Source of the DNA: Candidatus Omnitrophota bacterium
GTDB taxonomy: Bacteria > Omnitrophota > Gorgyraeia > VGKN01
Length of the DNA: 64,000 nt
Assembly: GCA_020052955.1 (NCBI GenBank)
Contig: JAGVOB010000004.1
Coordinates: 12,522 to 76,521, forward strand
Direction: 5' to 3'
Shown here: piece by piece, positions 1 through 25,300 of the stretch
How positions within the stretch are numbered: position 1 is the first letter of the stretch
How the letters are laid out: the number at the start of each line of letters is the position of its first letter
Position numbers and translations under genes: made by a program
The notes under the pieces: generated by a model
The model's input: the letters and a program-made list of their open reading frames with translations, nothing else
What the model was told of the DNA's origin: nothing
Database searches by the model: none

Positions 1-927
1 TATGGTCTAGAGGATATTTTTGAGATTTCATATGATAAACCAAGGCATACTATCACCGTTAGTCTACAAAATGAAAATCCAAAACCTGCTAAAGGCGGCT
101 CGATATTCCTGACGCCAAAGCATCTTCCAAAGGCATTTTTGGAGACCCCAGCAATCTTCCTTATGACATACGGATTGCTGGAGCTCCCGATAGCGGCTAA
201 CCTCTTAGGTATAGCAGGCGTTCCCTATGCGGTTAGTATTGGATACCTAGTTGCTCACGCTATAGGGGTGCTTCTTGACGCGCGCAGGGAAGGCCATAGC
301 GGATGGAAAGAAGCCCTGCAAACACTTAATCCGTTTAACAGGCCGGAGGTGTATATATTAACAATCCTGACAGGTTTTATAGGATATATGGTAGTGGCAT
401 TCGGCTGGGTAAGCCCGATAACATTAAGCGCGATTGCCGTCCTGACAGGTATCCACTGGCTGATTAACAGGTATTTCTACCCCAAAGAGGTGCGCTCATT
501 ATTCGGCAGGCTGGTTGAGATAGAGGCAAGGCTAAAGAATGATATGACTGATGAGGCGCTTAGCCAGATATCCGATATATTTAACGACATAGGCAATGAC
601 AAGGTAAAGACAGAAACGCTGAAGAAACTCCTGATAACGCGTAGCGGCGCCCTAAATGAGACCTTTGAATCAACAAGCAAGATAATGGCATTGGCTTATA
701 TGCTTTATGAAAATAAAACAGATGAAGCTGCTGCATTTGCGCAACAGCACAATTTAGCAGGCCTTGCTGCACAAGATAGTATAAACTCTATAGTAGATGC
801 TATAAGAGATGCATTGAAAGAAAAAACAGGCTTGGCTGCTGTATCATTGCAAGCTACTCCCGATACAACAACGGCTTCCACCACCATAACACTTAAGAAT
901 TTATTGACTGAACTCACCCAGAAGTAA
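1..927 (+). CDS. 3' end of an upstream paralogous giant membrane protein gene (partial, truncated by window start)
   Basis: Reading frame 1 is open from nt 1 through the TAA at 925-927 (the ATG at 139 is internal). Two TM segments are followed by a helical tail ending ...TTITLKNLLTELTQK*, which resembles the C-terminus of the 20,408-aa ORF (...TTIPRTQTLRELLIEFKQL*). The sequence TAACCGTATCATTTTT at and after the stop is identical to that after the giant ORF. Confidence 0.6.
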   Translation, partial: YGLEDIFEISYDKPRHTITVSLQNENPKPAKGGSIFLTPKHLPKAFLETPAIFLMTYGLLELPIAANLLGIAGVPYAVSIGYLVAHAIGVLLDARREGHSGWKEALQTLNPFNRPEVYILTILTGFIGYMVVAFGWVSPITLSAIAVLTGIHWLINRYFYPKEVRSLFGRLVEIEARLKNDMTDEALSQISDIFNDIGNDKVKTETLKKLLITRSGALNETFESTSKIMALAYMLYENKTDEAAAFAQQHNLAGLAAQDSINSIVDAIRDALKEKTGLAAVSLQATPDTTTASTTITLKNLLTELTQK

Positions 928-1358: not shown

Positions 1359-4300
1359 ATGGTAGACTGGCAGACAGGCGGTAAAAAAATGTGGATTAGA
1401 CTAATAGCCTTGGTTATAGCCGAGGTTTTTTTATTTACATCGATAGACCTGCCGTTTAGTAATTCTAACGCATATGCGTCTCCCCAGGAAAAACTTGTTC
1501 CCCCCATGCTCACAGGCAAATCCAAGGCCGACTCCCAAAGAGCAAGAGAAAATGAAATTATAGAAGGTCTGCTTCCATATCTTTTGAGAGACTTGAGGCA
1601 GCTTTATCCGGACGAATCTGCCCAGCAGATAATGTTAAGGGTACATAAACAATATAGCGATAGGATTACATGGTTTTCGGTTATGGGAATGACTGAAGAT
1701 AAACTGGGTCAGCCGGGGCATACCTATGCCTTTTCAATAGATAATAAAAAGGAGCCGGCACATTTTATAAGCGTTACCGTAACAGATGGTGCGACAAAAC
1801 TCCAGCCTTTGGATAAGATAAGTTTTGTAGATGATATAAGAAATAACAGAATCCGCCCCATCTCATTCTCTAATTTACCGATAACTGTTGCAGAGGTATT
1901 TGAGGTTCAAGGGGCCGGAGAAGGCGGGGGAAAAGAATTAAATATTGTTAAACTAGACAGTACAGACTTACTGTCTAAGGCAGCGGGGCTTTCGGGCTTG
2001 CTAATTGGTTACAGCGCAGGAGAGGGTAATATTGTATGGCGCATAGTCCTTGGGCTCGATGGTGTTTTCCTGCCAGGCCCGGGCACTATTATAAAACTTT
2101 CTCAGATAAATGACCTGGCTCAGATACTCCAAGCCCTAAAGGGCGGAACTGGACTTCCACAGGCAGATTTAGAGTTAACCCCGGAGAGATTAAAGTTAAT
2201 CCCTGCTATAACAGCTCCAGGCGCTCCTCAATTCCAATTAGTAAGAGCCGCAGCCACTAAAGAGGATGCCTCAATCACAGATAAACCCTTACGGGTATAT
2301 GTCTCAGAAGTTAATGTTGCAAAAGAGCCAGATATAAAGACACATCCGCCTACGGGGCCTCCGACAGGCTCCCTTGGCTTGTCTGCCATTATTCATCAAG
2401 CACCTATCACAGTAACCGTTTCCCAAATAACACCCCCTACCACAAGTAAAGTCCAAGTAGCTAAAGTAGAACAACCTGTAACTCCGCCCGCCGAAGAAGA
2501 AACCGCTCAGACACAAGAATTAGCCGAGACAATAGCAAGCCTTCAAAGACAGCTTGACCTTGCAAACCTCCTTCTTTTTACTCCATATCCTTCCAAAATA
2601 ATTTCTGCGCTTAGTGAAGCAATTAGGGTTGCAGAAGATGCGCTTAATAAACCAACACCTGATTTAGAGTCTCTAAGAGTGGCTGAGCTATACCTTAGTA
2701 GTGCTATAAATGAAGCCGTTATGACAGAGCCGATATCATACGTTTCTAGCTTACCGCAAGCCACAACACCACCCAGCGTAATTCCTCCGCCAACAGCAAC
2801 CTCCGCCTCTGTTACGCCCGAGCTGCTACAGGTAGCAGTAATTGAACCAACCAAAGGTGCGGTTGTAATGCCAAGGGTAGGACAATTGGCTGTTAAATTA
2901 GCGGCACTTGAGCCAGCAGGCGCTGCGGGAGAAGTTATAGTTACGGGAACAACGAGCAGTGTTTCTTCAGCCGCACCATCAACAGCAGCGGTTCAGCCTC
3001 TAAGAGCGGAGAAAGAATTAAGGGTTTCTGCTCCTGCCGTACCGTCTTCTATCAGTCCAGCCACTCAAATATTAGAGATTGTGATAAGGGCGCGGGCGTT
3101 ACTTACCAAAGCCAACAAAGAAAATGTTGTGAGCTTGTTAAAACAAACTGATATCCAAATATTAAAAGCCGCCCAGACAGAACTCGTAGATATAATAGGT
3201 ATCCAACCGACAGAAATTATGGCAACAGATGCTATAAGAATTGTTAAATTTACGGGGGTTCAACTTTATTACCAAAACGGAATGCCATATCTGACAGAGG
3301 TTATTGGAAAACTGCAGATTTATGATGCCCAATTTGAGAAGTTGTTTAGACAGTTAGCGGCCATAAGAGCGAGCGAAACAGTAGAGATAAGAGGCGCGAT
3401 AGAAAAAGTTCAATTGGCAAAATGGCAGTTTATAACAAAGGTTGTGCAGGAAGCGATTATTTTAAGAGAGCCAAGCGCGGCTATATCTACGGCACATATT
3501 TCCCCGGCAGTAACTTCAGCTGGCACTGCTGGGGCTAGTTTACCTTCAGTGCAAGGTCCAAAGGTAGTTGCTCTGGCAGAAAAACAATCTACAAGAGCTG
3601 TTGCAACTACAACAGGACAAGCAATGGCTACTACCGGCGTAACCAAACCTATAGTTGCTTCTGCTTCGCTTCCCACTGCGAGATCGACAACACTCGGACC
3701 GGCTGTGCGAACAGCTAAGGTAGCTAGTACATCTATCGCAATACCTGAAGTTGCGCCAACGATAGCACCTGCAGTCGTTCCGCAAGTTAAACCATCCAAA
3801 ACTACAGCCACCGCTACTGCTGCCGCAGTTCAGCCAACCACCAAAGGTATTTTTATACCCGAGTCCATTAAAAGGATTATAGTTACAGTTTCCCTGCTGG
3901 GAGTTTTGATTTTACTGCAAAATATACTTCCTTTACCCGGATTAGACAAGCTTGGAATGGGTATAGGCAGTATGTTTGGAATGAAGAGTGGGATATTTGG
4001 CCTTGGTCTTCAGCCTTATATCATCGCTTCTTCCTTGGTTCAAGTAGGTGCCGCCTTTATCCCTGCCCTTAAGAAATATGCGGAACTCGGCAAAAGCGGA
4101 CAGGCGAAACTGGCCGGGTACACTATGATACTTACGCCTATTATTGCGCTATTTTTAGGATTCTCTAATTTAGCTTCTATTGGTGGTATGTTTGCAATTG
4201 GTGGACTGACTATTTCAGGCCCGTTATTTTTAATATTAGCAGTTTTGGGTATGTCTCTTGGTTCGTTCTTGATAGCATTTGTCGGGGAAAGGATAACCAA

Positions 4301-7300
4301 GCATGGTTTGGGTCAGGGCACAACACTTATTATATTTACAAGTATATTAACCTCAATCCTTACCTCAGGGGCATCTGTTTTAAGCGGGGTTTCTGCGCTT
4401 CACATTTTCTCCATTTTAGCGCTAGGTGTAGTAGCAATTGTTTTACATGTCGTTACATTTAAGATACCACTTAAATTTGTAAGCAACATTAAAGAGGTAA
4501 AAGGGGAACTTCCTCTTAGAATGAACTACACAGGCACAAATGCCATTATGATAAGCTCTATGTTAGCGTCGCTTTTAGGCGCTGCTATGGGCGGTTGGCA
4601 GGGTATACTTATAAACAGCATAGCCATACTGGCTATGACAATTTTTACCACATACAGCACATTTACTCCTGATAAGTTGAGCAAAAACCTAAGTGCTCTC
4701 GGCGTCCAAGTGCCGGGAGTAGACGAGAGTAAATTAGGAAGTTATATATGGCGAAAAAGACTTTTATGGATAACGATACTGGGCGGCGTGGCTGTGGTGT
4801 TACTCGCTGGCTTACCAGGTCTTATATTAAACGGATTTAATCCCGCGCAGGCAGGTCCTGCAGGAATGGGTGCGATATTCGGAGGAAGTACGTTATTGTT
4901 GTTGGCGAATGCGCTGGTTGAGGTTTGGAATAATATAAGATATGCAGGGGCAAAGGGAGAAGCGCGAGGAGAGATTCAGCTGGCAGCAAAAGTCCAGAAG
5001 AAACCTATTATAAAAGTAGCAGGGTTTACCATTAAACAGATTTTGCCTTTTGGTATAACAGTTGCAAGTTTAGCAGGGATAGTTCTATTAAGTAATTATC
5101 TTGCCACAATAGGCGCTCTTATCGCGTTTATGTCAGGTATCTCTGTATTCGTTGTAATGGCGGCTATAATTAGTGCAATAGGTTATGGCGTGTATCTTAT
5201 AAGAAAGCATCAAATAGATTTTAATAAGTCTGTGGAGTTTTTAGGTGAGCTTACAGCGGGCCCAGCGTTTTTAATAGAAAACAGGGTTAAAGATTTTATG
5301 AATGAAGCGGAGACTGCCGCTAACCTGCCAGAAAATAGCAGATTTATTGAACAGTATGTAGAAGCACATAGAGGCGTTGCCGAAGAGCTTATCTTAAGAG
5401 AGCGCGCCAAGACAGAGATTATGAGACAATATATCGTTAAAAAGACGCACGAACAGTTATTATCTGATAAAACCGCAAGCTATGAAGAGGCTGATGCGCA
5501 TCTAGGGAAAATAAGGATAGATGCCATTGCCTTAGGCATTACCGCAATACAGTTATACAGGAGACGCGTTTCGGGTGAGACCAGGCTAGAGGCAGATAAG
5601 CTTACAGGCGCCAAAAGGATTATAAGGGAAAATCCCGTAGCCGATTTTACAATTCATAGAAATCAGATATTCGGCATATGGTTTTTGACTGAGATTAAAC
5701 ACTTTAGGGGCAGATTTATGACATATTTAGTAAGGATATTGAGTCCGTTCCTTCCTGAGGAGGCAATGGCAAAGATTAAGGGGTATGCCGTACAGGTTCC
5801 CACAGGTGAAGGTAAAAAGGAAATGGTTGGAATTGCCGCATATGTAATGTCAAGGGCGAACAAGGGAGTGCTTTTGGCAACGCATGCGCCGGACCTTGTA
5901 TATGAACAGGCAGTGGATATGGGCGATATATTTGCCTCGTGGCTTGATACGTCAGTTGGCGCAGTAGGCATACCAAACGAACAGGGAGAACAGACGTATT
6001 ATACCTTCAAATATGATTCAGATATGAATGAGGTAGAGGTAAGGCATGAAAAAGAGACGGCCAAATTTATACCTGCATATGCGTGCGGCGCTACATACGG
6101 CACGATGTCAGCATTTAACTTTCATAAACAGTTAGAAAGGATGGGTAGAGAAATTAGAAGAATTTATTCTGCCATACTAGATGAGATAGACGAGATTTTG
6201 CTTATGCAGGGCGTAAACCCTCACATCATATCTAAAGGCGATAAGGATCCGTTTGTAGAATTGGTTAATCAGCATATGGAAGACATTCTTAAGGTTATCT
6301 CCAGATTAGAAGCCGGAGAGCTTATATATGAACAAGGCCGGGTGCAGTTGGTTAATGCAGGACGCATAGAGGAGATTCTTAAGGATAAAGCGCACTCAAG
6401 AGAGGTAGCGGCAATATTTAACGACTATAGAATCGCAAGCTTTATAATAGGACGCCTGGTTAAGGAGTTAGCTGATAATCCGGATAATTACACCGTTGAC
6501 GAAGAAACAAGAAGAGCAACATTAACAGATAATGCAAAGGAATATATCAAAGAGTTTCTCGGAATTCCCGATGATAAGAATCTAAATGAATGTCCGGCGC
6601 TTGCGCATTTTGTGTGGGCTGCAATGAACGTTCAATTTAACTGCAGAAGGACTACGAAAGAATTAAGCGATTTATTTATGGTTATCTCCCAATTAAGAAA
6701 GGGAGATGTTAGATTTGACGCGGCTTCTGGAAAGGCGAGTTTTGCTGATCAGGGAATTATAGAGAAGATACTACGAGACGAGGAGCGCGTAATGGCTGTA
6801 TCCAGCGTACTTAGCGATCCGACACGCCACATAATAGGTTATTTAATAGGAGAGATGCGGAAAGATAAAACCAATTTTGTTCTTAAAGATGGAAAACCAG
6901 CGTTAAGCGATAAAGGAAGTAGATATATAAAAGAATTCCTTGGAATTCCCGAAGAAGCAAATCTTAAAGATTATCCCAGTCTTTCAAGCTTGATAGAAAA
7001 AGCATCTGATTTTAGCGCTAAGCCGAATGTTTCTATAGAATATGGTCTGGTTGAGATTAAGGATGATAAGAGTAATATAATAGGTTATGACGTAGTAGGT
7101 TATAACTCATCAACAGGCCAGTGGATGATAGGCCAGACCTATACCGACATACATCAGGCTATGGTTATTAAGGAGTTGTTTGCTGAGGTAAATAAGGGCG
7201 TAAGAGGCAAGATACGCTTTGTGGCAGAAAATGAGGCTATAAGCCAGCAGATGAACCAGTTATTCCTTAAGGATTGTTATCATGAGGCGGGAACATCGGC

Positions 7301-10300
7301 GACTTTAGAAAGAGAGGCTGTAAGGAGAGAATGGGAGACTTTAGGCCTTTTGGTCAGGAGTCTTTCTAAGGATAGGGCACCTGCCGTTGTAAATTTAGGG
7401 GTTGATGTATATTTGACTCGCGAAGAAAAGGCCCAGCCTATTACTAGGACAATAGCCGATAACGGTCAAAGAATTTCCGGAACCCTCATAGGTGTTTTTA
7501 CGGACCAGGGGGTTAATTGGGCAAGATATACTCTTGCGCGCCAGTTGCGCGAAGAGGGTTTTGAGGTTTATATAATTGACCAGCATACAACACCGGAAGA
7601 GATTAAGATGGCTAAGGGAAAGGCTAAGGATTTAAAACATAATCCAGACCCAAAATGTATTTTCATCATGAACCCAAGAGGAAACCGCGGGGTCAACCTG
7701 GCCGGTACTGTCCCGGATCTGCTATGTATAGCAGCAGAGATACCCGACACTAAAGACGCCCTTATACAGTTACTCGGCCGTATCGGAAGGCAGGGCGTCC
7801 AATGTTTTGTAAAGGAGATATATTCCCTTAGCGATAGTGATTTGTTCAAGGAGCATAACAGAGACCTGTATAATAAATTTGTTAAAAGCGGCATGACAGG
7901 AGAGATTACAGGCAGGAGAAGGGATAGCGTTCTAAAAGGTATAGAGAGTGCGCAGGAGATAATGGCATTAAGGCAGTCCGGCTCGCGTATAGACCTCGGC
8001 AGGTTCTATGGGTTGGTTCATGAGACATCCCAGAGAAGATTCGCCATGGAGGAGGGTATAGGAAGGCGTTCTACAGGGGATTTGAGGAAATATATATTAG
8101 GTTTAATTGAAGAGGATATGAAGCCCGAGGTTAAGCTTAATATTTTAATTCTCTTAAGCCTCCTCAGCGAGGAAACAAAAGGGGCTGTTGTAAGTATTAT
8201 AGATGAAGCGATTATGAACGAGTGGAGTAAATATCTTTCAGGAATCCAAGACCTGATGAAAAAGATTCAACTTGCCCAGTTTAAAGGAAAAGATCCCTTT
8301 GGAGAGTTTGCTCTTGGAGCTGCGAGATTAAGAGATAGTTTTAAAAGAGAGGCTGCCCGCAATATTGTAATGGCTTTAGCAAGCGTACATCCAAAAACCC
8401 TTTTAGAGATAAAACAGAGATTAGATGAAGAAAAGAGGATAGAGAGGGAAGCGGCTGCCTATTTTGGGGAAAGGCAGGTTGCATCTGAAGGAATAACTTT
8501 TGCGCTTGAGCCTGCTATAACAGAGGAAAGAGTATTTAGTGCCGCCGGCATCCTTAAGGATTTAACATCTCTAGCGCTTGATAAATCAAGGGCACCACAG
8601 ACAGGGATGCTCCATATTAAAGTGGGCGATGCAGAATTTATCCAGATAGGAGGGCACCTGCAGCATGGTGCAAATGCACCTGTTGAGGTAGTCTCATATG
8701 GACAAAACGGCGATACAACAAGGCCTGTTATAATAGTAAAGCTGAATCGTCCGGAAGATGTGGATAGAAAATTTTTAGAAGATTTTCTGATTCCCGATTT
8801 ACGTATGAAAATTTCTCCTAATGCAAGGGTTATATTTGTGTATTCCGGAAGCGAGAAGGAATTTAAGGCAAAGAGATATGAGATAGCGAGGGTTTATTCG
8901 CTGGTAAACTCTATCTCCAAAAAACATACAAAACAGGCAATCACCGGTTATATATGGGACAAAACAAATGAATCTCCAGCGCTTGAGCAGATAACGCCTT
9001 ATGTTATTCCTGTTTTCGATAAACTTGCCCACTGGCTGTCAAGGCTTAAGACACGAGCTCCAACGAGAGAACAGCTTAAATATAATTTTGTTCAGGTTTT
9101 AAAGTCTATTAATAGGGAAAACATAAAAGAATTAATTACAAATATCACGACTTTCAGATGGCAGGATATAAATTCTCAGAGTTTATTTAAAGTCTTTGCT
9201 CCCTCCTTAATGGTTTTAGGTGCAGTATTGCTCCCGTTAAAAGTATGGCTCTCGGGAGCTGGTATATCCGGGATAGAGGCCTTAATTACACCCAAACCTG
9301 TCTTGACTCAACAGGCACAATATGCAGGGCAGAGTGCAGGGTTAAGCCCTGATGAAAGAAATGAGATTGCACAGGTTCCCGTAGGGCAGCAGGTTGCTCA
9401 AGAATCCGCAGTACCTCAAGCGGTTGTCAGGGCAGAGCAAGCGCCTGCTGTAGCGCCTCAAGAAACAACCGCTGAACAGGCTAAGCCCAGCATATTCCAG
9501 CAAGCTTGGGCTGGCATAACAGGTCTATTCGCTTTTACAAAGCAACCCACTCAAAGAACTCAAGAAACTCAATATACTCAAATTGGTTTACCCAGCGCGC
9601 CTTATCAAGAGGTTACAGTCGGCTCACCACCTCCACCACCTCCGGAAAAACTAAATCCATTCCAGCAGTTCTGGTCTTTTGTGACAACCTCTTTTAGCAC
9701 TAATACTAATATTGCTTCTGCCTACACAGGCGTACCTCAGGTTGAAACATATACGCGTGATTTGTTACCATGGGTCATATTTTTTGGCATATTTGGTAGC
9801 ATTCTTGGTGTAAGAAAAAGAGATTTAATTGGAAATTTCCTGCGCAATGGATTAACCAATATTCCTGGCTTTATCAAGATAGCAGTCCCTGTCCTTATAG
9901 TTATGTTTTTATTATCAAATTCTACGCCAACACAATCAGTAATTGCACCGCCCCCAGCCAAAGAAACAGTTGTGCCTGTTATTATACCTACTGTAGAGCC
10001 CATAAAAAATATGGCGGAACTGCCCGCTAAGATTGATGAATTTTACACTTCCACTGAGATTTCAAATTTATTACTTCCGCCCGCACTAATATCTCTACAA
10101 AATGTAGGTAATTTCTTAAAAGTGCTCGGAGGTACTTCTCTAAAAACTCCAGAGGAAATAGTTGCCCTTAAGCAGGCGCAATATCAGAGAGCCACAGGAA
10201 AGACAATGAGTGAAAGTAACCGAAGCCTTCTACTTGAGTTTGAAAGTAAGAGGAACGACCCAGCTTCTTCGCCCGAGGAGGTATTTCAGCTATACAGTAG

Positions 10301-13300
10301 AATCGCAGGGAATCCAGAAATTGTATTTGACTATGGAAGCAGTATGGCTATTTGGGTCGAATTTAGAGAGAGTTTAAACTCGCCGGATAGTGCGAAGATA
10401 AAAGTTCTTTTAAATTCAATTTTATCCATTCCTCAGTTAAGGGATTTTATAAATAAGAAAGACCCAGCCCTTATCAAAGATTTAGAGCTTGCCCAGAGGG
10501 TTCTTTCGGGAGAGGTAAAACTTACCCCTGAGGTATGTGAGGTATTAGAGCAACTCGGCGCTAAGCTCACCGATTTAGGGAGAGATAAAGATAATCATGA
10601 AGAATTACTCAGAATTGATAATGAATTAAATCAGGTTATTCTGGATACTTCAAACCAACTGTTAAGCAATATATCTGAGGAAGAGTTGGAGAATTGGTTT
10701 AAGGAGAGAGGAATTACTATTTTGTGGGATGTAAAGGAAGAAGAAAAGCAATTCAGTAAACTTTATTTAGCTACATTAATATCACTTTTCTCCCTGTCAC
10801 AGATTCCGCCAGAGAGATACAGGGACTTGAATATAAGGATTTCTAATGATAGCTTTGCCTACAACTTTAAGACCGATACCATGGAATTTAACTTTCAAGA
10901 TACATTTGAAGGCTGGTATCCGATAAGAAGCGGTTTAATTGATTCAAGGACCACATTAGTTCATGAGATTTCTCATCGCTGGGACCTTAAATATCTGTCT
11001 GAAGACCTAAGAGCCCAGTTTTATAATATCAGCTGGGACTTTGAGCAGGTAAAGCAAAGACAAAGAGAAAGGGATGAAGCAACTGAGAAAGGGGAGAGGG
11101 TTATAATTTTGGACAGCACGAGAGAAGACGCGAATTTAGACAGGGATTTTCTGTGGGGGCACATTGTTCAAGGAGAACTTTCAAGTGGGATGGCAGTTGA
11201 AGACATAGCAAGAACAGTACAGGTCTTATATACAAATCCCTCTTTTGCTGTTAATAATGCTATTGATAACATAACTGAGTATGGAGACCCTGATTTAGCC
11301 CAGAAGATATTTTTCGCTTATGGGTTTTATGGGAGTGTCTCCAACAATGAAATATGGATAATACGCAGTGATGGCGCACCAGTTAATGAGGATGATGGCG
11401 TATATGTTTTTAAGCGAGATGGCAAGGTGTTTGAGGTAAAGATTGAAAATGGCGTAGCTGCAAAACCGCGCGAATTACCCGCTGATTTTAACCCAAATCC
11501 TTTCATACAGAAGTTATTTTCTCAAGCAACACCTCCAAAGCAATTTAGTCTATTGGATGTTATCACGGTCCGTGGCGCCTCTGCGTATACAGGCACAGGG
11601 CAGACAGGAATATTTACGCCTGATGTTCTTGGGTTAGTTGTATTCTTAGGTATATTTGGCGGTATTATTGGCATAAGAAAAAGAGATTTAATTTTTGATT
11701 TTCTACGTCGTGGCTTATCTAATATTCCACGTATCTCGCCACGTCTTGTTATAACTATGCTGGTTCTGTTGCTTGTAGCTACCTCTTGTGCACCGGCACC
11801 AACCGGGGGAAATCCTCGGTCAATAGCAACTTTGGCTCCCCCATATGAAGTAACCGAGACATTAATACCACCTGTTAAAGCTACACCACTTCCAACCGCT
11901 ACACCTTATGCAACAGTAGGGGATTATTTATCCAAAAAAGGTTTACCCGGCACTGTTTCTGAAGCTGAACTATCAAGATTTACGAGCCAGTTATTTGAAA
12001 AGCTTCTTGAGGATATGTATAAGGAAGGAACGCTTCCAAAAGTAGCAGGTTACGAAAAGGTATATACAGAGTTTATTCAGACATTGCGTAAACCCGGCGC
12101 TGTTAAGGTTTCTCCAGATACAAATGTTTTCTATTATATTAACCTTCACTCAGAATTACTTAGTAACGGTGTAATAGCGACAGATATACTTGTAAATAGA
12201 GGTATTATCAGTCCCGATTTTCCGCTTGATTTATTAAAGGATACCTTAAGACATGAATTTGTGCATTTTGTAAATAAAGACCTTACAAGAACCAAACTTG
12301 TGCTTAATGAAAGACTGAGAGAAGCTCTTATAAAGGCATACTCATTGCCGATACCTCAGGATAAAGATAAGGACCCGGACGATAGAGGAATGTATTTATA
12401 TAATAATTTTATTGAGGTACTCAAAAAGGACCAGAATCTGAGAGAAGATATAAAACGCCTGATAGCGGTATTTGTAGAAGACGAATACCTTGCATATGTT
12501 CAGGAGGCAAAATATACGAAAGTGTTGAGTAGTTTGCATCCAGAGTTGCGTATGCACGGTTTCTTTAATCCTGATGGCACAGTAAGGGATGAGATGGGTT
12601 TAAGGCTATGGATACTTGAGAGAACCATCCCGTCTATAAATCCGCACCTTCATCAGTTAGCAAATGAGATAGAAAGAATAGAAGGCAGGGCAGATTACTA
12701 TCCAGTTCCTGCTGGCGAGAAGCCTTACCGAAGATATAGCTTTAGAGCAGCCCATCCCCTAACAGGAAAAGAAGTAATTATTTCTTACCCTCTTATTATA
12801 CCAAAGGTTCTAATCAAGGAAGAAGTAGGCGGTGTTAAAACAGCACTTGGTCTTCCAGAGGAGATATTCGGAGAGGTTGCTCCATATTTTAGAAGAGAAC
12901 AATTAAGAGGAAACTATTTTGAATATCTTAAGAATAAGACTTATAAGGATTACAGAATTCTAGCTCCAAAACCAACCTCTATGTTACCACAGGATACCCT
13001 TATTAGCTTTGCCGGAGATTTAGTTACAGGCTTCCTTACGGCTAATGCCGTCCAGGCCGCAGGCCCAACACTGACCTCGACTAAAGCAGAAGTTGATATT
13101 CCAGGCCTCTTGCTTGTAGGCGGTGCCTCCTTGTTAATAGCCATATTTGCAGTTGCAGTAGCAAGGCCCTTGGGCGGTATGTTTAAGTTTGTATTCAATC
13201 CCCTGCCGTTATTGGTTATCTTAGCAGGAATCCTGCTTGCATATTTAGCGTCTACCGCTACTGTTTATCCTGCAACCCTTACCCCGGAGCAGGCAGATAA

Positions 13301-16300
13301 AGCCGCAACGGTAATTGAAGAAGTATTAAGAGCCCCCACGCCTCCGGGCGCCCCGCAGAAAGACCCGAATAATGAGAAATTCCTCAAATGGCTTGCAGAG
13401 CAGTTAAAGAACTGGGCAGCCCATCCGGAAAGGGGACTTCCGCCTATAGGGGGTGGCCTTATACAGAAACTGGCAAGCCAGAATGAGCAGGCAAGAAAAC
13501 TGCTTGAGGATATTGTGTCCGGAAAGGTAAGGATAATAGTTGATATTAGTTCTGGCGCATCAGTTGAGAAGGCGGGCTTACATCTTAGGTCTATGGCTGA
13601 ATATGCCTTAAGAAATGGTGGTATAGTTGATGGCCAGCGTGTCATATTCTTAGGGATTGAGCCAAAGACAGGCCTGTTTGACGCAGCAGTAAGGCAATTG
13701 GCTAATACTGATAATGTAATCTTAATTCAGAGCGGGCTTGGCAAGCTTCCGCAGGAATTTAAAGGAATAGTATTACCTGACCTTAAATTCTGGAGAGTAA
13801 TTGTTACTGCGCCTGAGCCTGATATGCTGGCAAAGGATTTTGGATTACTTACAGACGCAGCAAGATTAGCGCAGGACAAGGTAATAGTAGTTACCGAATT
13901 TATGCCCACGATGAAAGCGCCTGTGCCAGGAGGGCTTGAAAGCACTCCTTGGTTAGATGCCCTTAAACAGACTTTATCAGCCTGGCAGTATAATCCTGTC
14001 AGAGTAACATCGGATAAAGTGCCTGCATTTATAAATTCAGATACATTTAGATGGTTACAGTTAGGCAAGAGCCAGGTTGAGGGGCTTCGCTGGGGAGGAG
14101 ATTACTGGTATCATGAATTTATGAGAAATGGCGCACCTTCAATTATAATCCTGCCATTTATTCTTGAGAGCCTCAAGGAACAGCCGGTTGTTCCAGCCAC
14201 TCCATCTATTCCTACCCCTGTTTCAGGCATGCCTGGCATATTATCGGGCGTAGGTATGGCATTATCCTTTGCATTATTGGGCGGGGTAATGAGCGTTGTA
14301 TTTATAAAATCTCCGAGGCGTGCAAGAAAGTTTATTATAGCCTTAGCAGGTGCGTTTACGTTAGCTATGCTCTCAGGCGCTCTGATGCCTACCTATGCGG
14401 CAGAAAGACAATTGGGCTTAGGCGTAGTTACTTATAAAGAGAGCGGCCTTGGAGACTATGTTAACAGGTTAAATGCAGATATAGGGGTAAAGGCATTAGA
14501 CCAGGTTGAGATTTTACCCAATACCCTATTTTCTTTTGACTCTTACGTTCAAGGATACATATCTGAGGGCCATCCCCTTAAGGGCGATAAAGAGAAATTT
14601 GGCGCAGGGCTTTGCGATGTAGCAACAGCCCTCAGGCGTTCAATAGAAAACAGTTATGGGCCTCCTGTTATCGTAGAACTTGGAGAAGATGATGTTAGTT
14701 CAGTTGCCTCCATTGAATTCCCTCAAAGGCTGGCTAATGCGACTGTAATCGGTTTTAAACTACCGCGATACGCGGCGATAAATCAGGAACAGGCAAATGC
14801 ATTACTGAGCAGGGTATTAGAAACTTATCCAAATGTAAAGATTGCGTATATATATACCTCTCACGGTGAGGAATTTTATAACGGAGAGGGCGCTTCCGTA
14901 TTTTTCTATGAGAATTTAACAGCGAGTTCACCGCGCCAGGATATCTGGCTCTTAACACAAGAGCCATACCTGATTGATACTAATAGCCCGGATGATACCT
15001 TGCAGGAATTAAACATAAGTTTAATTTCTAAGGCAGCGACAACAACCGAAGACGCGCTTGCCGAGGAAGAGCAATTCACCTTATCAACCCTCCTATCTTA
15101 TCTGACCACCTCGGAGATTAGAGCCCAGGGAGCAGGCGATATAATAACAGCAATTTTAGCCATAATCATTATGGCTGTGTTAGGCAGGGGAAGAATTCCT
15201 AAATTTATTAACGCAATACCCGCACCTTCCGGCAGAGGACGGTTTAATTTACGCTTACCTTCATTGCTAAGGGTTATTGTTTTAGCAGGTTTTGCTCTGG
15301 CATTAGCCGCCTGCGCAACTGCGACGCCACAGCCAACCCCGACACCAATAAGCCAGGCGGATATACCGTCCTATACCGAACGCGTACTTTCCCAGATTGA
15401 TGAGGGAAAATATCCTTTACTGCGGGCAGAGCTTAAGAGAGTAGGCGTAATCAATAACCAGATAGAATATCCGGTAATGGTTGAATATGGCTTAAGCGCT
15501 GACGGCAAAACAGCCACTATTAAGAGCGTTACGATAAATCCCGAGCTTTTCCTTAATATGCCGGCAAATATAAGGGAAAGCTATCTTCTGCACGAGGAAG
15601 AACATTTAAGCCCCGCGAGCCTTGATTTGGCTCGGGCTATTCAAATATTGAATAAACATTTCTTCGGCGGCATAGATTTATCCAAATCAGAAAAGGAAAT
15701 AATGGAGGAATTAAACCGAAGAATCGTAAACGACCCCAAAGAAAGAGAATTATTCAAGCATTACGTTGCCCTGCGCGTCCAATATGAATATCTAGGCAAC
15801 AGGAAGCAGTTTGATTACATACTTAATAATCGGATAGATATAAATAATCTGATAAGCAAAGAACAAAACCCCGGCGTTAAAGCGGTCTTGGGCAATATAA
15901 ATGAATTTATGCAGGTAGCCCAAATTGACAAGCCGCAAGCTCAGATAAACGAGAGAATCTTTAAAATAGCGATACTCAGAAACCCAATATGGAATGACCC
16001 ACGGCTAATTTATGATTTTACCCTGGCTATTGAGCAGATAGAGCATCCCGAGCTTAAGTTAGTACAATCCGGCGGCAGATGGCAGATGAGCCCGGCTTAT
16101 ATAGGCACTGACGGACTTCCCACTCTGCCGATATGGGATTATCTCACCATACCTGATTATTATTCGCCCGATATCATAAATACTCTCCAGCAGTCTGCAG
16201 TTGGCGTGCCCCACCTTGCAAGGCCCGTTTCGCCCGCTCTGACACAGCCCCTGACTGCAGGCCAGACAGGCATATGGGCAGTTATTATAGGTATATTATT

Positions 16301-19300
16301 TAGTATCTTATTTATAAACAATCCTATTACAAGAAGATTCAAATTAACTTGGTTAAAGCGCATTGCTATTTTAGGAGGTCTTCTCATTCTATTGACCGCC
16401 TGCTCAAGGCCACAGGCTTTACCAACTGCAACACCTACTATGACACAAACCGCAACCTATACCCAGACGTCCACAGCCACGTATACTTCAACGCCGACAC
16501 AAACATTCACACCGACATCAACTTCTACACCGACAGAAACGCCGACATCTACGCCGACCGAGACGCCGACCCAAACGCCAACTTTGACGCCTACAGCAAC
16601 ACCTTTACCTCTCCAGAATTTTTTAGCTGGTGGAACTAACATTGGAAGCTGGTTGATATTTTTCATAGGATTTGGCGTATTATCATTTGGCGTTATAGTC
16701 CTATTACATAAAACAATTAACCTCAATAGCATTGGGCTTACATTAGGAGGTTTAATAGTTGTAGCGCTTGGAGCTGTTGGTTTGTATTACAGCTCTCAAG
16801 TACAAAATTTCGCTAAGCCGGCAACTGCTATCCAAAAGGCAATAGACTCTACAACGCTTTTTCTTGTCAGGGCAGGCGTCTTTTTAACAGGAATAGAAAT
16901 AATGTATTTATCAGCTCTGGTTATCTCTTTCATCTTAAGTAAGATTAAAATATTAGGACCATTCGCGAAGGTTTTCAGCTTGATAGGTAAGATATTGAAA
17001 ATACCGCTAAAAGAACTGTTAAAAAAACCGGTACTAGGACTAATAACTCTCGCGATAATTATTCTCCCATTTCTTATGCGCCTTATTCCTTTGCCAACCT
17101 CTTATGCTATTCAGCAAGGAGACTTTCAACTGATAGAAACATTACTTTATCTCAGGCATCCGATAACAGTAACTGACAAAGATGCACTTATACAAATAAT
17201 AGGCAAATTATATGATGAGGGCAACGGCATCACGCGATTTTATGTTGCAGACCCTTCAACAGGAGATTTAAAAAGCGTTGACGCGTACTATCTGCTGGCA
17301 TATCCCGAATCAATTAATTTTACTCTAACCCGTGAAAAGGACAAGGACGGCTATTACATAAAGATACAGGAAAATAAGATACAAGAAATTACTCCTACTC
17401 CTCAAGGTTCTATCCCGGGTGCACCACACCTTGCAAGACCCACTATGCCAGAGAGCCAGGTTGCTGTCTCGGGGGTGAATACCCTGTCCACATTTATTAT
17501 AGGTATATTATCCCTTATCTTATTCACAAACAATCCTATTACAAGAAGATTCAAATTAACTTGGTTAAAGCGCATTGCTATTTTAGGAGGCATTCTCATT
17601 CTGTTGACCGCCTGTGCAACTGTGACTCCAGTGCCTCAGGAGGCGACAATACAGCCCGGAAGCCTTGAAGAACTGCAAGTGAGAATAATAGAAAACAGGC
17701 TGATTAATGAACTCTTATTCAATTATGAAAACCAGGAGGCAATAATACAGGTATCCCGGGAATATGAAGTTGACCCGCGATTGTTAACCTCTGTTGTTAT
17801 GATGGAGATTGCAAGCCGCGATCCAAGTGAAGATTTATGGGATAATTTAAAAGATGAAGCCAGGGAAATATTAAACAGAGACCTTGAGGCTACCTCTTTC
17901 GGTATAGGACAGATACGAATTGACACAGCGCGCGATATGCTCGGCTACCTAAAGGCAGAGAACAAGCTCGGCGATTTGGAACTCGGCTACCTGATACAGG
18001 AATCATTTTCGGATGAGAATATAGAGAAAATCCTTGAAAACGACCATGACAATATCTACATAGCAGGAAGGTATGTAAGATGGATTATAGATACATTAGA
18101 AGGCGCGGGCATAGAGGCAGATATTTACACCGTAGGATTCGGCTATAATGGTATCGGTCGGATAACAAACTTTGATGAATTTGAGCCGGAAGTGCAGCAG
18201 GCGATAAGTGACTACAGGGCCGAACACACAGAAATATTCAAGCTGGTATATAATGCCACATACTACGAGTCATTGCTGAAGATTAACTATCTGCCTTCAT
18301 GGTCGTCATATCTTCTGGGAGCGCCTTCTAGCGCAGGAGAATTTATCAATGGTTTCTATGATGCCGATTCAGTCGGTTTTAAGAGCTACTGGGCGGTTTA
18401 TGACGGCGTATATACAAAACCGCATAACATCCTTCCTGAATTTAGCGGTTTATACAATGCCTCCGTATTCGGCGAGGTGCGCTCAGGAGCCATTAACCTT
18501 CCTGACGGCAGGGTTCTTCAGATGTACGAAAACAGCATCCTTGAGCTTACCTCCAATGGCATAGTCAAGCAGTATCCGTATGCGGCGTATATTTTGCAGG
18601 GGATGCGCTCGGGATTCGACCAGGATTTCATAAATCATCTATCGGCATCGCCCAATGTGCCGGGGAAATTCTCTAATTTTATAGCCTCAAATAATATCGG
18701 GGCACAGCTGGGCTCGCTTCTTACTGACGCATTTGACATGAAAAACTTCCCAATTGACGGCGGTGAAAAATCCGTCAGGATACAATTCTTTGAAGGAGGC
18801 GTGCTCATAGCGGAGAAAAATTTGCTTGGAATTCCCGGGGACGTAAGGCTTGCCACGGTAGATTCGGTAGTCAGATATCTTGAGTCAGTGCACTCCTACG
18901 CATATGATATGCCGCCTTACGATCCTCTCTTAAAACCGCAGCCGGCTCCAACATCAACCCCGCTTCCAACGCCTGAGCTTGGGTCGTATATTGTGCTTTA
19001 TTCGGTTGGCCAGACAATAGAGGTGACTACAAAGCAAGCCATCATTGATGTTATTATGGCCACTAACCAGCGGAGGATAGCTCATCAAGAAGAGTCCATT
19101 CAGTATTTCTATCCCGAGACCCAGTGGACAGGCGAACCCTATGCCCATTATCTCGGGGATGTAACCAGAGAGAGCCTTGTCGAGCTTCTTAAGGATTTCC
19201 CTGACTCGGGATTTATTATGCGCCTTACACTCCAGCAGGGTGACGTCGCCCCGTTTATCAGGATAACCGAGATTGAAACAACAGGTGCTGTTTCGCCCGC

Positions 19301-22300
19301 AAAACAATTCAGCCTGCTTGATTATTTATCAGTAGGCACTGCACAGGCAAGAACGCCTGGTGTCCTACCTACCCTAACATCTACATTTGACTGGCTGGGC
19401 TTGGGATTATTGGGATTATCGTTAGCCCTTGCATTCGGCATAGTAAGACTTGCCCACCTACGCGGTGGGACAGGGCGGCTTAGTCGAAATATTTTATTGT
19501 GGGCGGGAGTTGCTTTGGTAGTTAGTATTGCCTTAGCCAGCGGTATCTTTTGGTATTTTACACAGGATATGTCCTTTAAAGATTGGACAGCGGGCACGGC
19601 TTACTTTCACGAGCAACAAACTAAACTTATAGAGCCTATAATTAATACAGAAGATGTTCCGTTAAGAGACACTGGTTTCAATTTTCAAGAACTTGATTTG
19701 ATATGGCATCGGTCAATAGATAGTTTAATCTTAGATCCTAATAGACCCGAGGAGTCCAATCTTTCGATGCGGAAGCTTAATTTTATCCTGTATGAGAGGT
19801 TTTCCATAGGTTACTACCCAAGTTGGTGGCAAATCTATGAAATTCGCAGGAATTTTGTTGCGCAGAATTTTGATGAAATTATAGCTCTCATTGAAAAACT
19901 TAATCCATCCGATTATTCAGATTTTGCAACTCAGTGGCAAGCAGTACGCTTGAGAAATACCCTGATACGGCTTGTTTGCGATGGAATAGTAAGAGGATTT
20001 CCATCAATTGATTACAATAAATTGGACATAGTAAAACCAATTTTGCTTAATGATGAATTAATTGTTAAATTTGGTTGGAATTATGCGGGAAGCAATTTAA
20101 TGGATTTATTTTTAGATAAGAAAAATGACCTACCTCCTCTGATTCCCCCTGTCATTAATGAAGCACAAGCAGAGAGAACTCTTGATTTATTTACTAAATT
20201 ACTCGAGTCTTATAATAACACCGATTATAGCACGCTAAGCGAAAGTGATTCTAATCTGCTCTATTTCTATGAACGCAACGAGGTAACAGGTATTGCTATG
20301 CAGGAACCACTTAAATTTGAAGCATGGAGAGAATTAGCACAGTCTCTGAAGTACCTTTCTGATTATGCTCCTACTCAGCGTATCCGTGAACGCGCAAACA
20401 ACTTACTTTCTCGTATTCCGTTAGAAATTGTTAATGACCCTCGCATTGAAATAGCAAATAGGGAATATGGAGATGGGACGCACTATCTTACGCGTGAATC
20501 ATATCAAACTGCGGTAACTTACTATGAAAACCAGATGGGTTTGAAGGGAATACGTCAAATCCCGATTTGGGATGTTAACGCGGTAGCCTATGTTAGAAGA
20601 GAAGTAACACCTAAGATGTTAGAATATTTTGCTGAAAGCTCTCAAGCCCACGATGTGCCTGTAGATTTTCCCATAATTATGTGGTTACGAGATGATATGT
20701 TCCAAGCTAGAATGCCGCTATATACAATTGGAACTGGATTAGCTCACATTAAGACATTTTTTAATTATGATGGTGTTGGCGGTCGTATCGCAGATACTCT
20801 ACTTAGAGTACTTCCGGATTGGTTTTTGAATAAAGCTCTAGAGGATAGACCTGCAAAAGCTATTTTAGGGCTTATCTTTAATTCAGCTGGTTCGTTGACA
20901 ATGCAGGTGCGCGTAGATAGACCACAGAATACTGATGATTTAGGTATACGCTCAGATGGTTTATGGGAGCGTTTGGTTAAAAAGGGTTATGTAAGTGACC
21001 CCGCAACCCTTTCTAACAGAGAAGTTACATGGCTTTTGTTAACTGATCAGCGGCTTGCGATTGAAGCGGGAACAGCGATGTTATCAAGAAAATTCCAAGA
21101 CCCAAAAACTGGAGATTCCTTTAGACAAGATTATTATAATTATCAACGCTTGTTACCGGAAGGTTTTGACCGTCGAAGTCTTATAAGAGGGTGGTTTGCC
21201 CCAAATTTTTATAGTATATTTGGACCTAATCTGGGATTTGAACTTTATGGTGGTTATCTTACAAATGGCATTGCTATAGGAGAAGACTACTTTTTCGACC
21301 TTTACCTCGTCCTGTTAGAATCTGGTGTCTTGGATTCACTCTATGGCGAACCTGTCCCTGCGATTATAGTGGGAATCTCAAAGTTAGAAGAGTTAAAACA
21401 GGTGGGCAGATGGGCTAATGGTAGAGATGCAGGGAAGGACCCATATATCCAAGAGGCAGCACTGCGCACTCTTAGGGAAATAGCTCAAGATACAGAACAT
21501 CCAGAGATGGCTATTGAGGCTCAGAGGATACTCGGCATACTTGAACAAAAGAGCGCCCTCGCAGGCATAAAGACACAAGGCGTAAGCAATATCTGGCAGG
21601 GTTTGGCTATGGTATTGAGTTTTGGTTTAATTGGAGGGGTGTTTGGAGGAGTCTTTACGCCCATAAAAAGATTAAGAGACAGGTTGCAGGGAAGGGTTAA
21701 GTCAAGGACACTCGCCAATATATTAACAGGAGTTGTATTGGTTCTCGGGCTAGGCCTGATAATCGGATCCGGTTATGGAATAGCTTTATTGATTAACTAT
21801 CTTACACCATTTAATGTCCAGACACAATATCTCACAATTACCGATGCCTCTTATAAAACTACAGACCAATCGCGTATCGGCGAGGTGCTTGGCTTTTCTA
21901 ACGATATGCCTGTAATCTCGCCTATCCAAGGGCTAGACGTAAATGTTGACCTAAAAAGCAGTGTAATAGACGCCAACATATTAAACTTTACTATCAGCCC
22001 AAGAGAGGGCGAGACCTTAGAAGGTATAGAGGGCTTTGTAATTATAGTTATAAAGGATAACAGAGGCAACGAATGGCATAAGCCAGTAGTTATTCAACCC
22101 AATCAGAGCGAGTACTCAGTAGTTATACCCCCAGATAACAACATAGAATCCATAACATTTAGTTCTCATATATTGGATGATAAAAGGGTAAACATATCCA
22201 ATATAGCGCTTACCAATGGCATGAATGTGCCGGTAATCATGAGCAATGGAACCATTAAAGCAGTGCCCGCCCACATAGACTCAGCCAAGCATAACCTCAT

Positions 22301-25300
22301 AGTTAATAGCGATAATGAAATTATATTCACAGGCGATGATATCCTTACCCTGACATTCGATAAGCCAATTAAGGGAAATACGATGCAGTTTATAGCAAGT
22401 ACGAGGGAAGAAGAAAGCGCTATAAGCGTTGAATTGACATATGGTGAGTGGGGAGAAGTCAAATCATTCTTCATCTCCGGCGAGCCCACCATTTACACAC
22501 TTAATATTGATCCCACAAGAAAGCTTACGCAGGTAAGGATTTACGGTATGCAGGGCACAAGACTGAATTTTATACCCTCTGTGCCAACAGCTGTGCCTAC
22601 GCTACCCCCGCCCTCAGAAATTCCATCTTCCCCAACCGCCGCTATAATACCGTCCGGAACGCCAACTCCTGATTATATGTTTGCAAGGGATTATACGTGG
22701 GATGAGTTATTGAACGACCCAGAAAGGCTTGATGAGTTTGTCAATGAGGTTTTACGCTGGGAGTCAAGATTTCATCAGCCGGGCGTTGGCTACAATGCCC
22801 AAAGCGGTATTACCTATGATGGATATGCGATTAATTATACTACTGGAGAACTATTAGGCACGCCGCGCAATTGGACCGCAGCATCCAAGGAATCATTGCA
22901 GGTCACTATTTTAGCTTTAGCCATCGCCGGGAATGAAAGGGCGCAGTTCTTCCTCTCTCCCGATGATCCCTCCAAGGCAAGAGCTATTGCTATTGACATT
23001 CTTACAAGAAAGATAGCAAGTTATGAGAAATTTAACAAAGAATATCCCGGCTTCGGTGGATTCATACCGTGGGTCATAGTAAGCGATGAAGGCATAAAAC
23101 CAACAAGTGATTGGCAGGACCGCGTGCCAGGCCTTGATAATGGCCAACTTGCATGGTCATTAGTGCTTGCCGATTATGCTTTAGAGAAGCAGGGCTATAG
23201 GGAATTAGCGCAGCATTACCGCGACTACTGGCAGATGCTTGCCAAGAATTCTGTGCCGATGTTCTATGATGTCCAGACAGGAAAAGTGAGAGCCGAAGTA
23301 AAGATTGGTGATACAAAAGGCGAGGTTGTATCCTTAAACTACTCCAATAATGCCCCCGGATATTTCTTGGATGACCCCTACGAGGGTGAGCTCATGGTGA
23401 TGTTTACGAGCCTTTTTGGAGAGTGGGATGATCCTCTTGCAGTAGAGCGCATCTGGGAAGATAAACATATGGAAAGCGATGCGTTCCGCACAGCAGACGG
23501 CCAGACTATTACAGTAAAACAAGGTTACTGGTTCTCATCACATGAGGAATGGGCATGGTTTGTCCTGCCATATCGCGATGACCAGTTGGCATGGCAGATT
23601 TTCTACAATGGACAGGTAGCCAGAACCTGGTATTCCTCAGATAATTCGATACCAGGGCTTCTTGCTTCAGTCAATCCGCCCGTGAGCCCGAGCGGGGAAT
23701 CATTAGATTATCTGCAGTATCTAAGCGCGATTGGAATTCCTAAAATAGGAAGTCAACCAGTACAATACGGAGATGTTATCGCTCCCTATGCAAGTTTCCC
23801 TGTGATTTTGGCAGAGCAATCAGTGGGTAGCGTGTGGCTTCAGACTATGCTCTCGGGATACGGGATGCAGGGGCCCTATGGTTCTACAGAAGCTATTACT
23901 ACAGATGGCCAATATATTGCACCATTGCTTACATGGGATGGGAAAAATACCACGGTTATTGCATTTCTTAGCCAATCCACTGATTTTATGCGTGATGCGC
24001 TAAAAGAACTGGGTGTATATGATGAGTTTCTAAATCGTATTAATACCGAATACACCGAGACATTTGGCAGCAACCTATCAGTGTTAATTCCGCCTGTTAG
24101 TTTTGCAACCCCATCCGTAAGGCTTCCGACAGAGGGTATCCCAGGCTTCGTACCAGTCGCTCCAGGAACAGTTGTAGATGTGTTTAAAGGCTCTGCCTTT
24201 AATGGTGATGGGGAGCTGTTGAAACAGTACAAGTTGGAAAATGGAGTGCTTACCCTGCCCGCGGTAGATGGTTATATATGGAATAGCATAAACCAAACAG
24301 ATGTAACTACCAATCACTATTTGAACTTTACCGTCAATACAACCGGCGGCAGCGTATTTATAGAAATAAAAAACACCGATGACGAACTTATGACCAATGA
24401 TAAGATATTTGTGGAATTTCCCGATACAGGCGGTGAGTTCAAGACATACTCTATTGATGTGGGCCCGCTTTTAACAAACGATAATACTACGTCTGGTATC
24501 TTTGTCTTCTCTAGCCCAAGCGGTTTAATCCAGTTGCAGCAGCCACTACCCTTTACAGATGCAGCCACAGGCGAAATGTTGACATTTGACGGCAGGCAGT
24601 TCGGTTTAGGCCTAACTCCTCAAGCCCCACTTGACACCACAAGAGTTAATTTAATCCAACGGATTAATTTTATTCCAGATGATCCTGATCCGAATATAGG
24701 CCTTAAATATGACCATGAGGAGACACTAAAACTGTATAAATCAGGCGGATGGATATGGGCATATATTCCCGAGCTTTTAATCCCTGACCTTAAGATGCAA
24801 TCTGTCCTTGAGTTAACCGTGACGACAAATGCTCCTGCGACTGTCTGGTTAGAGCTTAAAAATGAAAATGACGAATGGCTGGCAATGACCGAAAAGCATT
24901 TTGATATTCCAAAAATCAGAGTTGATATTCCAAATACGAACGGCGTACCACAGACCATCCCCATTTATTTAGACAAACTCTTAATTAGTGGCATAGATGA
25001 TTATAGGGTTAAGATAATGGCATTCTCAGACCCAACCGCAGATATAGAGATTGCCGAGATGGTATTTACAGAATCGTCCGCTGTATCTGCTGCAGTAACG
25101 CCCGCGTCCGTAACAGAAGGTTTAATATCCTCTTCCAAATTCGGCGCATTTGGGTACTTAACTAGAATAATACCCGGTTCACTTCTTTCAACCTTCTTAG
25201 GCTTAGGTACCCTGGTTGTTGGCGTGGTGTTAGGCGGGATTGAGTTAAACAAGAAGAGCCTGAAATATTTACTTCTTACTATGGTCTTAGTATTGGTACT

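Follow-up and report, generated by a model that had tools for sequence, protein, structure and literature searches.

A SecY-family channel domain and a SecA-like motor in one giant reading frame of a Candidatus Omnitrophota bacterium

The housekeeping channel protein SecY is about 430-450 amino acids (aa) long, is encoded by a stand-alone gene in the ribosomal-protein (spc) operon and has SecE as its partner. Gram-positive bacteria may additionally possess an accessory Sec system, in which a second, diverged pair, SecA2 and SecY2, handles very large surface proteins and is encoded beside its client. The components of that system are specified by separate genes and act with the accessory proteins Asp1-5, the clients being serine-rich glycoproteins. 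Here we describe a stretch of DNA from a Candidatus Omnitrophota bacterium (contig JAGVOB010000004.1; the 64-kb sequence examined is referred to as the window), which holds one giant open reading frame (ORF) and fragments of two neighbouring genes. The 20,408-aa product of the giant ORF contains a SecY-family channel domain, followed by two additional transmembrane (TM) helices and a SecA-like motor. The parts are known; the architecture and the logic it implies are new.

The arrangement resembles the housekeeping SecYEG-SecA translocase (3DIN, 5EUL, 6ITC) in that the same two families occur in the same functional order. Shared features are the ten-TM SecY fold with its hydrophobic pore ring and the GERIT and PYI.AS motifs and, on the motor side, NBD1, PPXD, NBD2, the helical scaffold and the two-helix finger. 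Unlike in the housekeeping system, the SecY and SecA parts of the giant are covalently fused via the two extra TM helices within a single 20,408-aa protein, and the module has neither a detected SecE or SecG nor the C-terminal zinc-finger tail. The likeness to the accessory Sec system lies in the way of working, a diverged pair with a huge client, but the family is a different one, and here a single polypeptide comprises both the system and its presumed client. Membership of the SecY2/SecA2 families was considered and rejected: no SecY2 model matched, and the best SecA2 match (E = 1e-13) compares with E = 4e-16 for SecA, all of these scoring far below the model cut-offs. Domains of Asp accessory proteins or serine-rich glycoproteins did not turn up in general Pfam scans of the window.

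A SecY-SecA fusion has previously been engineered. This construct, SecYAEG, translocates substrate in vitro (Sugano et al. 2017, PMC5562318), so the SecY-SecA architecture can work. In both SecYAEG and the giant protein, a single polypeptide runs from the SecY C-terminus into the N-terminus of SecA. SecYAEG, however, is artificial, was built from canonical parts of Thermus thermophilus or Escherichia coli type, was used together with SecE and SecG, and carries no attached client (PMC5562318). The giant protein, by contrast, is a natural fusion, in which the extra pair of TM helices and some 190 residues of linker lie between the two domains, with a putative client of about 18,000 aa behind them. 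In the searchable literature no earlier natural SecY-SecA fusion was found, which would make this the first.

Giant proteins with divergent SecA_DEAD and preprotein-binding domains have been described from Omnitrophota and other phyla (West-Roberts et al. 2023, bioRxiv 10.1101/2023.11.21.568195; Nielsen & Lui 2026). Self-export was proposed for their SecA-like domains, the access of those domains to the membrane was queried, and the production, targeting and export of giant proteins was raised explicitly as an open question (West-Roberts et al. 2023, 10.1101/2023.11.21.568195). The published giants and the one described here have in common a length above 10,000 aa, numerous TM helices and, beside TM regions, a SecA-like domain that evolves fast; the present protein has 20,408 aa, about 77 TM-like hydropathy peaks, a SecA_DEAD match and a weak PP_bind match. 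Compared by description only, the published giants differ in that no SecY domain is reported and their SecA parts are said to lack a scaffold/wing domain, whereas here a clear SecY domain precedes the motor, and the scaffold and two-helix finger are detectable. The sole related public record carries the label Planctomycetia instead of Omnitrophota. An association of giant proteins with Sec parts has thus already been published, and the new element is the identified SecY channel. No mention of such a channel in a giant protein was found in West-Roberts et al. 2023, Nielsen & Lui 2026, a survey of 'huge proteins' or other searchable literature, which agrees with the view taken when the sequence was initially annotated that the architecture was undescribed. 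How proteins that range from 10,000 to over 100,000 residues in length are made, targeted and exported is an open question for which SecA-like domains were known, and no channel; a channel and a motor in one reading frame would offer a concrete and testable answer.

The SecY-family channel domain

The giant ORF spans positions 1359..62585 of the window on the forward (+) strand, as do all features described below, and it contains every part of the protein discussed here. It has one stop codon, the terminal one, and its product has a mass of about 2.2 MDa. A frame of 61 kb free of all three stop codons at approximately 42% G+C cannot be explained as a gene-calling artefact. The SecY domain lies at 3846..4949 (residues 830-1197), inside this single frame, as the initial annotation had proposed for a protein of about 2 MDa; the segment delimited there coincides with the domain from TM1 to TM10.

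The SecY blocks on which that proposal was based, KSGIFGLGLQPYIIASSLVQ, GERITKHGLGQGTTLIIF and IFGGSTLLLL among them, are present in the translation of 3846-4950 in the order given. The Pfam SecY profile (PF00344) matches residues 879-1187 over positions 2-303 of its 306, with 131.6 bits against a gathering score of 32.2 (E = 4.9e-38 for a 500-aa segment and 1.4e-36 for residues 1-2000). The match is far beyond chance. A phmmer search against all PDB sequences returned only SecY chains (E = 3e-18 to 1e-12), including those of Thermotoga maritima (3DIN), Geobacillus (5EUL) and E. coli (2AKH). An AlphaFold2 (AF2) model of residues 825-1300, built with an alignment of 13 canonical SecYs, has moderate confidence overall, with a predicted local distance difference test score (pLDDT) of 58 and a predicted template-modelling score (pTM) of 0.56; the SecY core blocks reach pLDDT values of 60-80. 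The model predicts ten long helices in the SecY part, the number counted in the initial annotation, together with the beta-hairpin of the TM6-7 (C4) loop. Searched against the PDB with Foldseek, it gave 50 listed matches, all of them to SecY or Sec61alpha, with E down to 8e-15 and target-normalised template-modelling scores of about 0.45-0.69 among these 50. Residues 830-1197 are therefore confirmed as a full-length, true SecY-family channel domain, in frame in the giant ORF. Neither of the outcomes that would have contradicted the initial annotation, a lack of a significant SecY profile match or a predicted fold at odds with the two pseudo-symmetric halves of the SecY channel, was observed.

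The domain is not, as had been supposed, a housekeeping channel. Rather, it is a strongly diverged paralogue, which scores 76.8 bits against a cut-off of 253.6 with the NCBIfam housekeeping-SecY equivalog TIGR00967, shares at most 33% identity with any SecY and, unlike the product of the stand-alone housekeeping gene, is embedded at residues 830-1197 of a 20,408-aa ORF. For residue-level comparison, it was aligned with the 13 canonical SecYs and with E. coli SecY; in the E. coli sequence, the six pore-ring isoleucines, R357, F67 and F286 fell at the expected positions. The equivalents of the pore-ring residues I82, I86, I187, I191, I278 and I408 are L884, I888, T988, I992, M1064 and L1181, so that five of the six positions are hydrophobic, and the GERIT and PYI.AS motifs are retained. 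Lysine and arginine residues are concentrated in the canonical cytoplasmic loops (five, three and seven in C4, C5 and C6, respectively) and are nearly absent from the periplasmic ones. Because of this bias, the SecY domain is likely to sit in the membrane in its normal orientation.

The SecA-like motor and an independent relative

While the channel part of the initial annotation stands, its partner domain had been overlooked: SecY is followed by two extra TM helices and then by a collinear SecA-like motor. The extra helices, TM11 and TM12, lie at 5031..5207 (residues 1225-1283), with hydropathy scores of 1.94 and 2.58; they are helical in the AF2 model, where their pLDDT is below 50, and are predicted to return the chain to the cytoplasm. 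With the SecY domain in normal orientation and the chain returned by TM11-12, the motor would be placed in the cytoplasm. A linker on the scale of 190 residues, predicted with low confidence to be helical, connects TM12 to the motor (5208..5645).

The motor itself, comprising NBD1, PPXD, NBD2, the helical scaffold and the two-helix finger, occupies 5646..8378. Pfam SecA_DEAD matches with 38.4 bits against a gathering score of 24.6, whereas PP_bind and SecA_SW are weak, at 18.3 and 18.5 bits, and fall below theirs. The NCBIfam SecA and SecA2 matches mentioned above are similarly remote, the SecA equivalog giving 58.4 bits against a cut-off of 814. In profile-profile comparison (hhalign) with six canonical SecAs, NBD1 and the PPXD stem are recognised with a probability of 98.2%, and residues 1740-2400 form one collinear alignment to SecA residues 226-955 (93.6%, E = 3e-8). 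The two-helix finger aligns to residues 756-809 of PDB 3JUX.

The motifs of SecA recur in recognisable form. Walker A (5799-5822) reads PTGEGKK(E) where canonical SecA has GEGKT; a lysine at the Thr/Ser position is unusual for a P-loop ATPase. Walker B reads ILDEIDEILL...NPHIIS (canonical VDEVDSILIDEARTPLIIS), the PPXD contains YTVDE..R.ATLTD, the same pattern as in canonical SecA, motif III is GTSATLE (canonical MTGTA.TE), and motif VI in NBD2 is QLLGRIGRQG (canonical QLRGRSGRQG). The two-helix finger (8205-8366) is IMNEWSKYL...IQLAQFKGKDPFGEF, compared with DNLW..HL...I.LRAYGQRDPLVEY, and its tip keeps an aromatic residue (LAQFKGKDP versus LRAYGQRDP). The PPXD stem is duplicated, one copy lying at ~6430-6600 (IIGRLVKEL...YIKEFLGIPDDKNL) and the other at ~6830-7000 (IIGYLIGEM...YIKEFLGIPEEANL). 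Judged from these sequence comparisons, residues ~830-2340 make up a natural SecY-SecA fusion of the form SecY (ten TM helices), two TM helices, linker and SecA.

One relative was found in a scan of one genome per GTDB species. This is a contig of 7,158 nucleotides (CAYZNX010000060.1) from a metagenome-assembled genome (MAG) labelled 'uncultured Planctomycetia bacterium'. One of its frames is open from end to end, with 2,385 codons and zero stops, and aligns to residues 753-2914 of the giant, so that a single frame again spans the upstream linker, SecY, the extra TM helices, the SecA-like motor and the first downstream TM segments. Identity to the giant is 91% in SecY, 88% in TM11-12 and 94% in the SecA NBD1/PPXD, with ratios of nonsynonymous to synonymous substitution rates (dN/dS) of 0.137, 0.18 and 0.14, respectively. 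The linker between TM12 and the motor is also conserved (dN/dS 0.25). Beyond residue 2400, identity drops to 73% and dN/dS rises to 0.33, and the upstream linker, the final 77 residues before the SecY domain, is fast-evolving (47%, 0.535). Two independent assemblies agree on the in-frame fusion, and the ratios, lowest for the SecY and SecA domains among the regions compared, indicate that both Sec domains are under purifying selection.

Other searches point to the rarity of the module. When 1.84 billion cluster representatives were searched exhaustively with HMMER, no match reached E < 1e-30; the library evidently contains neither the giant nor its relative, and very long proteins may be under-represented in it. 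The best 150 matches were all of ordinary SecY length (at most 614 aa), and the top one was an ordinary SecY from a Planctomycetota MAG (33% identity, E = 1e-19). Because of the source of this top match, the data are weakly consistent with an origin of the SecY domain by duplication within that phylum. Word-indexed protein searches with SecY and with the motor returned ordinary SecY and SecA only, at 22-33% identity, and two scans of Joint Genome Institute (JGI) metagenome contigs, one using the SecY-SecA alignment and one using SecY alone, revealed no relative.

A proposed private translocon and its alternatives

On balance, we lean towards the proposal that residues ~830-2340 constitute a self-contained, covalent SecY-SecA translocase, which would serve as a private translocon for the giant's own exported segments. 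Since it lies near the N-terminus, the module would be translated first. It would presumably be inserted by the housekeeping SecYEG/YidC machinery, many minutes ahead of the remaining 18,000 residues, and could then pass the large extracytoplasmic domains of the same chain through the membrane, releasing the dozens of TM segments and internal signal peptides through its lateral gate. The two-helix finger of the SecA-type motor, which is diverged yet complete, could reach the channel mouth. If a downstream segment entered the channel as a hairpin and TM segments left by the lateral gate, action in cis would be topologically possible. The module may also serve the products of the paralogous neighbouring genes. 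At typical bacterial elongation rates, a ribosome would need roughly 20 minutes to translate 20,408 residues. A private channel would spare the essential housekeeping one from occupation by a single enormous nascent chain: if the proposal is correct, the giant brings its own translocon and avoids blocking the essential one for about 20 minutes or more of translation.

Several observations weigh against this proposal. The conservation evidence is shallow, as it comes from only two sequences (n = 2) that are 91% identical. In the SecY domain, the plug (TM2a) region, where the AF2 model has low confidence, lacks ten residues relative to each of the 14 canonical SecYs aligned, and F67 falls in the deletion. 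The cytoplasmic TM6-7 (C4) loop is 11 residues short of the canonical length. In the C5 loop, D1122 occupies the position of E. coli R357, which is Arg or Lys in 12 of the 13 aligned canonical SecYs and which secY genetics in E. coli has identified as important for SecA-driven translocation. No SecE or SecG signature was found in TM11-12 or nearby, even at E <= 10. In the motor, the Walker A lysine replaces the Mg-coordinating Thr/Ser, in the relative as well as in the giant, and because this residue is lost, the ATPase competence of the motor is uncertain. An AF2 model of the SecA-like region (1,060 aa, seven-sequence alignment) reached only pLDDT 40 and pTM 0.25 and gave no usable docking geometry. 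A further difficulty concerns the N-terminus, where a hydrophobic segment resembling a signal peptide or anchor (1386..1481, residues 10-41, ...NSNAYA|SPQEK; hydropathy 2.05) is followed by a Pro/Thr/Ala/Val-rich region of about 790 aa (1482..3845), which has no recognisable domain and no Pfam match even at E <= 10. If the segment were an N-in signal anchor, the 790 non-hydrophobic residues, which contain no TM helix, would invert the SecY domain, in conflict with the charge bias of that domain, which requires a cytoplasmic N-terminus at residue 830.

The shortened plug and remodelled cytoplasmic loops would suit a channel whose motor is permanently tethered and which has given up docking ribosomes or free SecA. 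With the plug shortened and the loops that dock ribosomes and SecA altered, the module would then be a natural test of which features a channel requires once its motor is fixed to it. At about 1,500 residues, it is small enough to express.

The same features can also be read as signs of decay. The SecY and SecA parts could be relics of a captured, duplicated translocase that conduct no polypeptide and act as a multi-span membrane anchor or scaffold. The GKK in place of GKT in Walker A, the replacement of R357 by Asp, the shortened plug and C4 loop and a periplasmic TM7-8 loop 26 residues shorter than canonical would all be expected of relics, as would scores far under the equivalog thresholds in both domains (SecY 76.8 versus 253.6; SecA 58.4 versus 814), and TM regions adjacent to the SecA-like domains of other giants have likewise been regarded as anchors (West-Roberts et al. 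2023). We nevertheless consider this reading rather unlikely. A plain anchor needs no hydrophobic pore ring, GERIT motif, Walker B, motif VI or aromatic-tipped two-helix finger, and it would not account for the dN/dS of 0.14 in both domains, the lowest among the regions compared. Nor does the loss of plug residues imply loss of function: in plug-deletion studies, SecY and Sec61 channels remain active. PDB entries 2YXQ and 2YXR are among the listed Foldseek matches.

Quite unlikely, in our view, is that the module works as an accessory translocase in trans, being carried by the giant or proteolytically released from it and acting on other clients, such as the products of paralogous neighbours. 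Accessory Sec systems of the SecA2/SecY2 type, which serve very large adhesins, provide a precedent; a flanking gene starting at 63082 has the same N-terminal signal-like segment as the giant, a further ORF, open to the window start, ends at 927, and the internal lipobox sites described below could permit cleavage of the polypeptide. However, the stretch from the end of the motor (~residue 2340) to the first downstream TM segment contains neither a lipobox nor any other obvious cleavage signal, no SecY2 model matched, and SecA2 models matched no better than SecA. The neighbouring genes moreover run off the window and may carry modules of their own.

It is highly improbable that the single frame is an artefact in which misassembly, frameshift errors or use of a wrong genetic code joined what are really two genes, secY and secA. 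Giant genes are admittedly difficult to assemble, and a short 7-kb contig is the sole relative. Yet the stop-free run extends over 61 kb at about 42% G+C; the relative, which is independent and 9% diverged in protein sequence, keeps all parts in one frame, its 2,385 codons containing zero stops; and the SecY domain is not that of a normal secY.

Exported segments, further domains and flanking genes

If the module is a private translocon, its substrates would lie in the part of the protein that follows the motor. The first TM segment after the motor, identified by hydropathy at 9183..9239 (residues 2609-2627), would take the chain out of the cytoplasm. It is followed at 9756..9917 by the first of a repeated type of TM hairpin, composed of a TM helix, an Arg/Lys-rich loop and a signal-anchor-like TM helix, and homologous to the hairpin at residues 3415-3483. 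Throughout residues ~2600-8200, hairpins of this single type recur, each consisting of a TM segment, an Arg/Lys-rich loop and a signal-peptide-like TM segment.

A regular-expression scan identified five internal lipoprotein-type signal peptides, at 11742..11789 (RLVITMLVLLLVATSC), 15270..15314 (RVIVLAGFALALAAC), 16359..16403 (RIAILGGLLILLTAC), 17571..17615 (RIAILGGILILLTAC) and 25263..25310 (KYLLLTMVLVLVLTAC). Each is the second helix of a TM hairpin and has a positive charge, a hydrophobic run and an L-x-x-C lipobox, followed by a Pro/Thr-rich tether; the lipoboxes end in ...LLVATSC, ...LALAAC, ...LILLTAC (twice) and ...LVLTAC. Five clear sites compare with 0.02 expected in shuffles, and the whole protein has only 27 cysteines. 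All five sites have the same parity. A plain alternating-parity topology derived from the hydropathy peaks was rejected as fragile, since it flips if the TM segment at residues 2800-2820 (score 1.54) is missed, and the topology argument rests instead on the common parity of the lipobox sites. Given a cytoplasmic motor, and with the TM segment at 2800-2820 counted, the domains between the hairpins (~130-1,140 aa) would be extracytoplasmic. The predicted exported total is about 4,800 residues in some 12 separate loops; large periplasmic loops are classic SecA-dependent substrates.

The lipobox hairpins suggest a polyprotein of lipid-anchored exported modules. In a more far-reaching and doubtful version of this scheme, the giant would be a self-exporting polyprotein: the module would co-translationally thread about 12 large domains, the lipoboxes would be lipidated and cut by Lgt and Lsp to leave a string of membrane-tethered lipoproteins, and cryptic SecY channels might lie in the TM blocks beside the SecA domains of other giants.

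Four HExxH motifs occur in the giant protein: HEISH (10962-10976), HEFVH (12252-12266), HEEEH (15591-15605) and HEGLH (61716-61730). Three of the four lie in predicted exported modules between hairpins, which could be candidate metallopeptidase-like domains; the HExxH-bearing modules have no Pfam match. Beyond the lipobox hairpins, a unit of about 900 aa is duplicated in tandem (26835-29678 and 29724-32396), with 62% identity over 877 aligned residues, and one TM segment, RRVILTLSILSPILLLAGAYAGA, is identical in the two copies (residues 8528-8550 and 9491-9513). Further downstream are HEAT repeats, multi-TM blocks and a DUF3131 match near nucleotide 43,500. The C-terminal part (~56700-60900) matches PRK/uridine kinase (E = 2e-17), cytidylate kinase (E = 1e-24) and HD (E = 1e-6) domains, these nucleotide-metabolism-type domains being an odd mix for a membrane-threaded protein.

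The ORF at 139-927 (+) is open in frame back to base 1 and encodes the C-terminal end of a protein whose gene lies upstream of the giant. The ~165 residues with which it closes (98-261) are collinear with the giant's C-terminus from end to end, a similarity that is not significant (27% identity, E = 0.2), and the ORF may represent a third paralogue. On the other side of the giant, a second ORF (63082-64000, +) starts 497 nucleotides past the giant's stop codon and continues beyond the end of the window. The N-terminus that it encodes (MIDWQTGNHKFWLKLITLVIAEVFLFTSIDLP...) is almost the same as that of the giant, the similarity being visible at the DNA level too, and the ORF is probably a further paralogous large gene in tandem.

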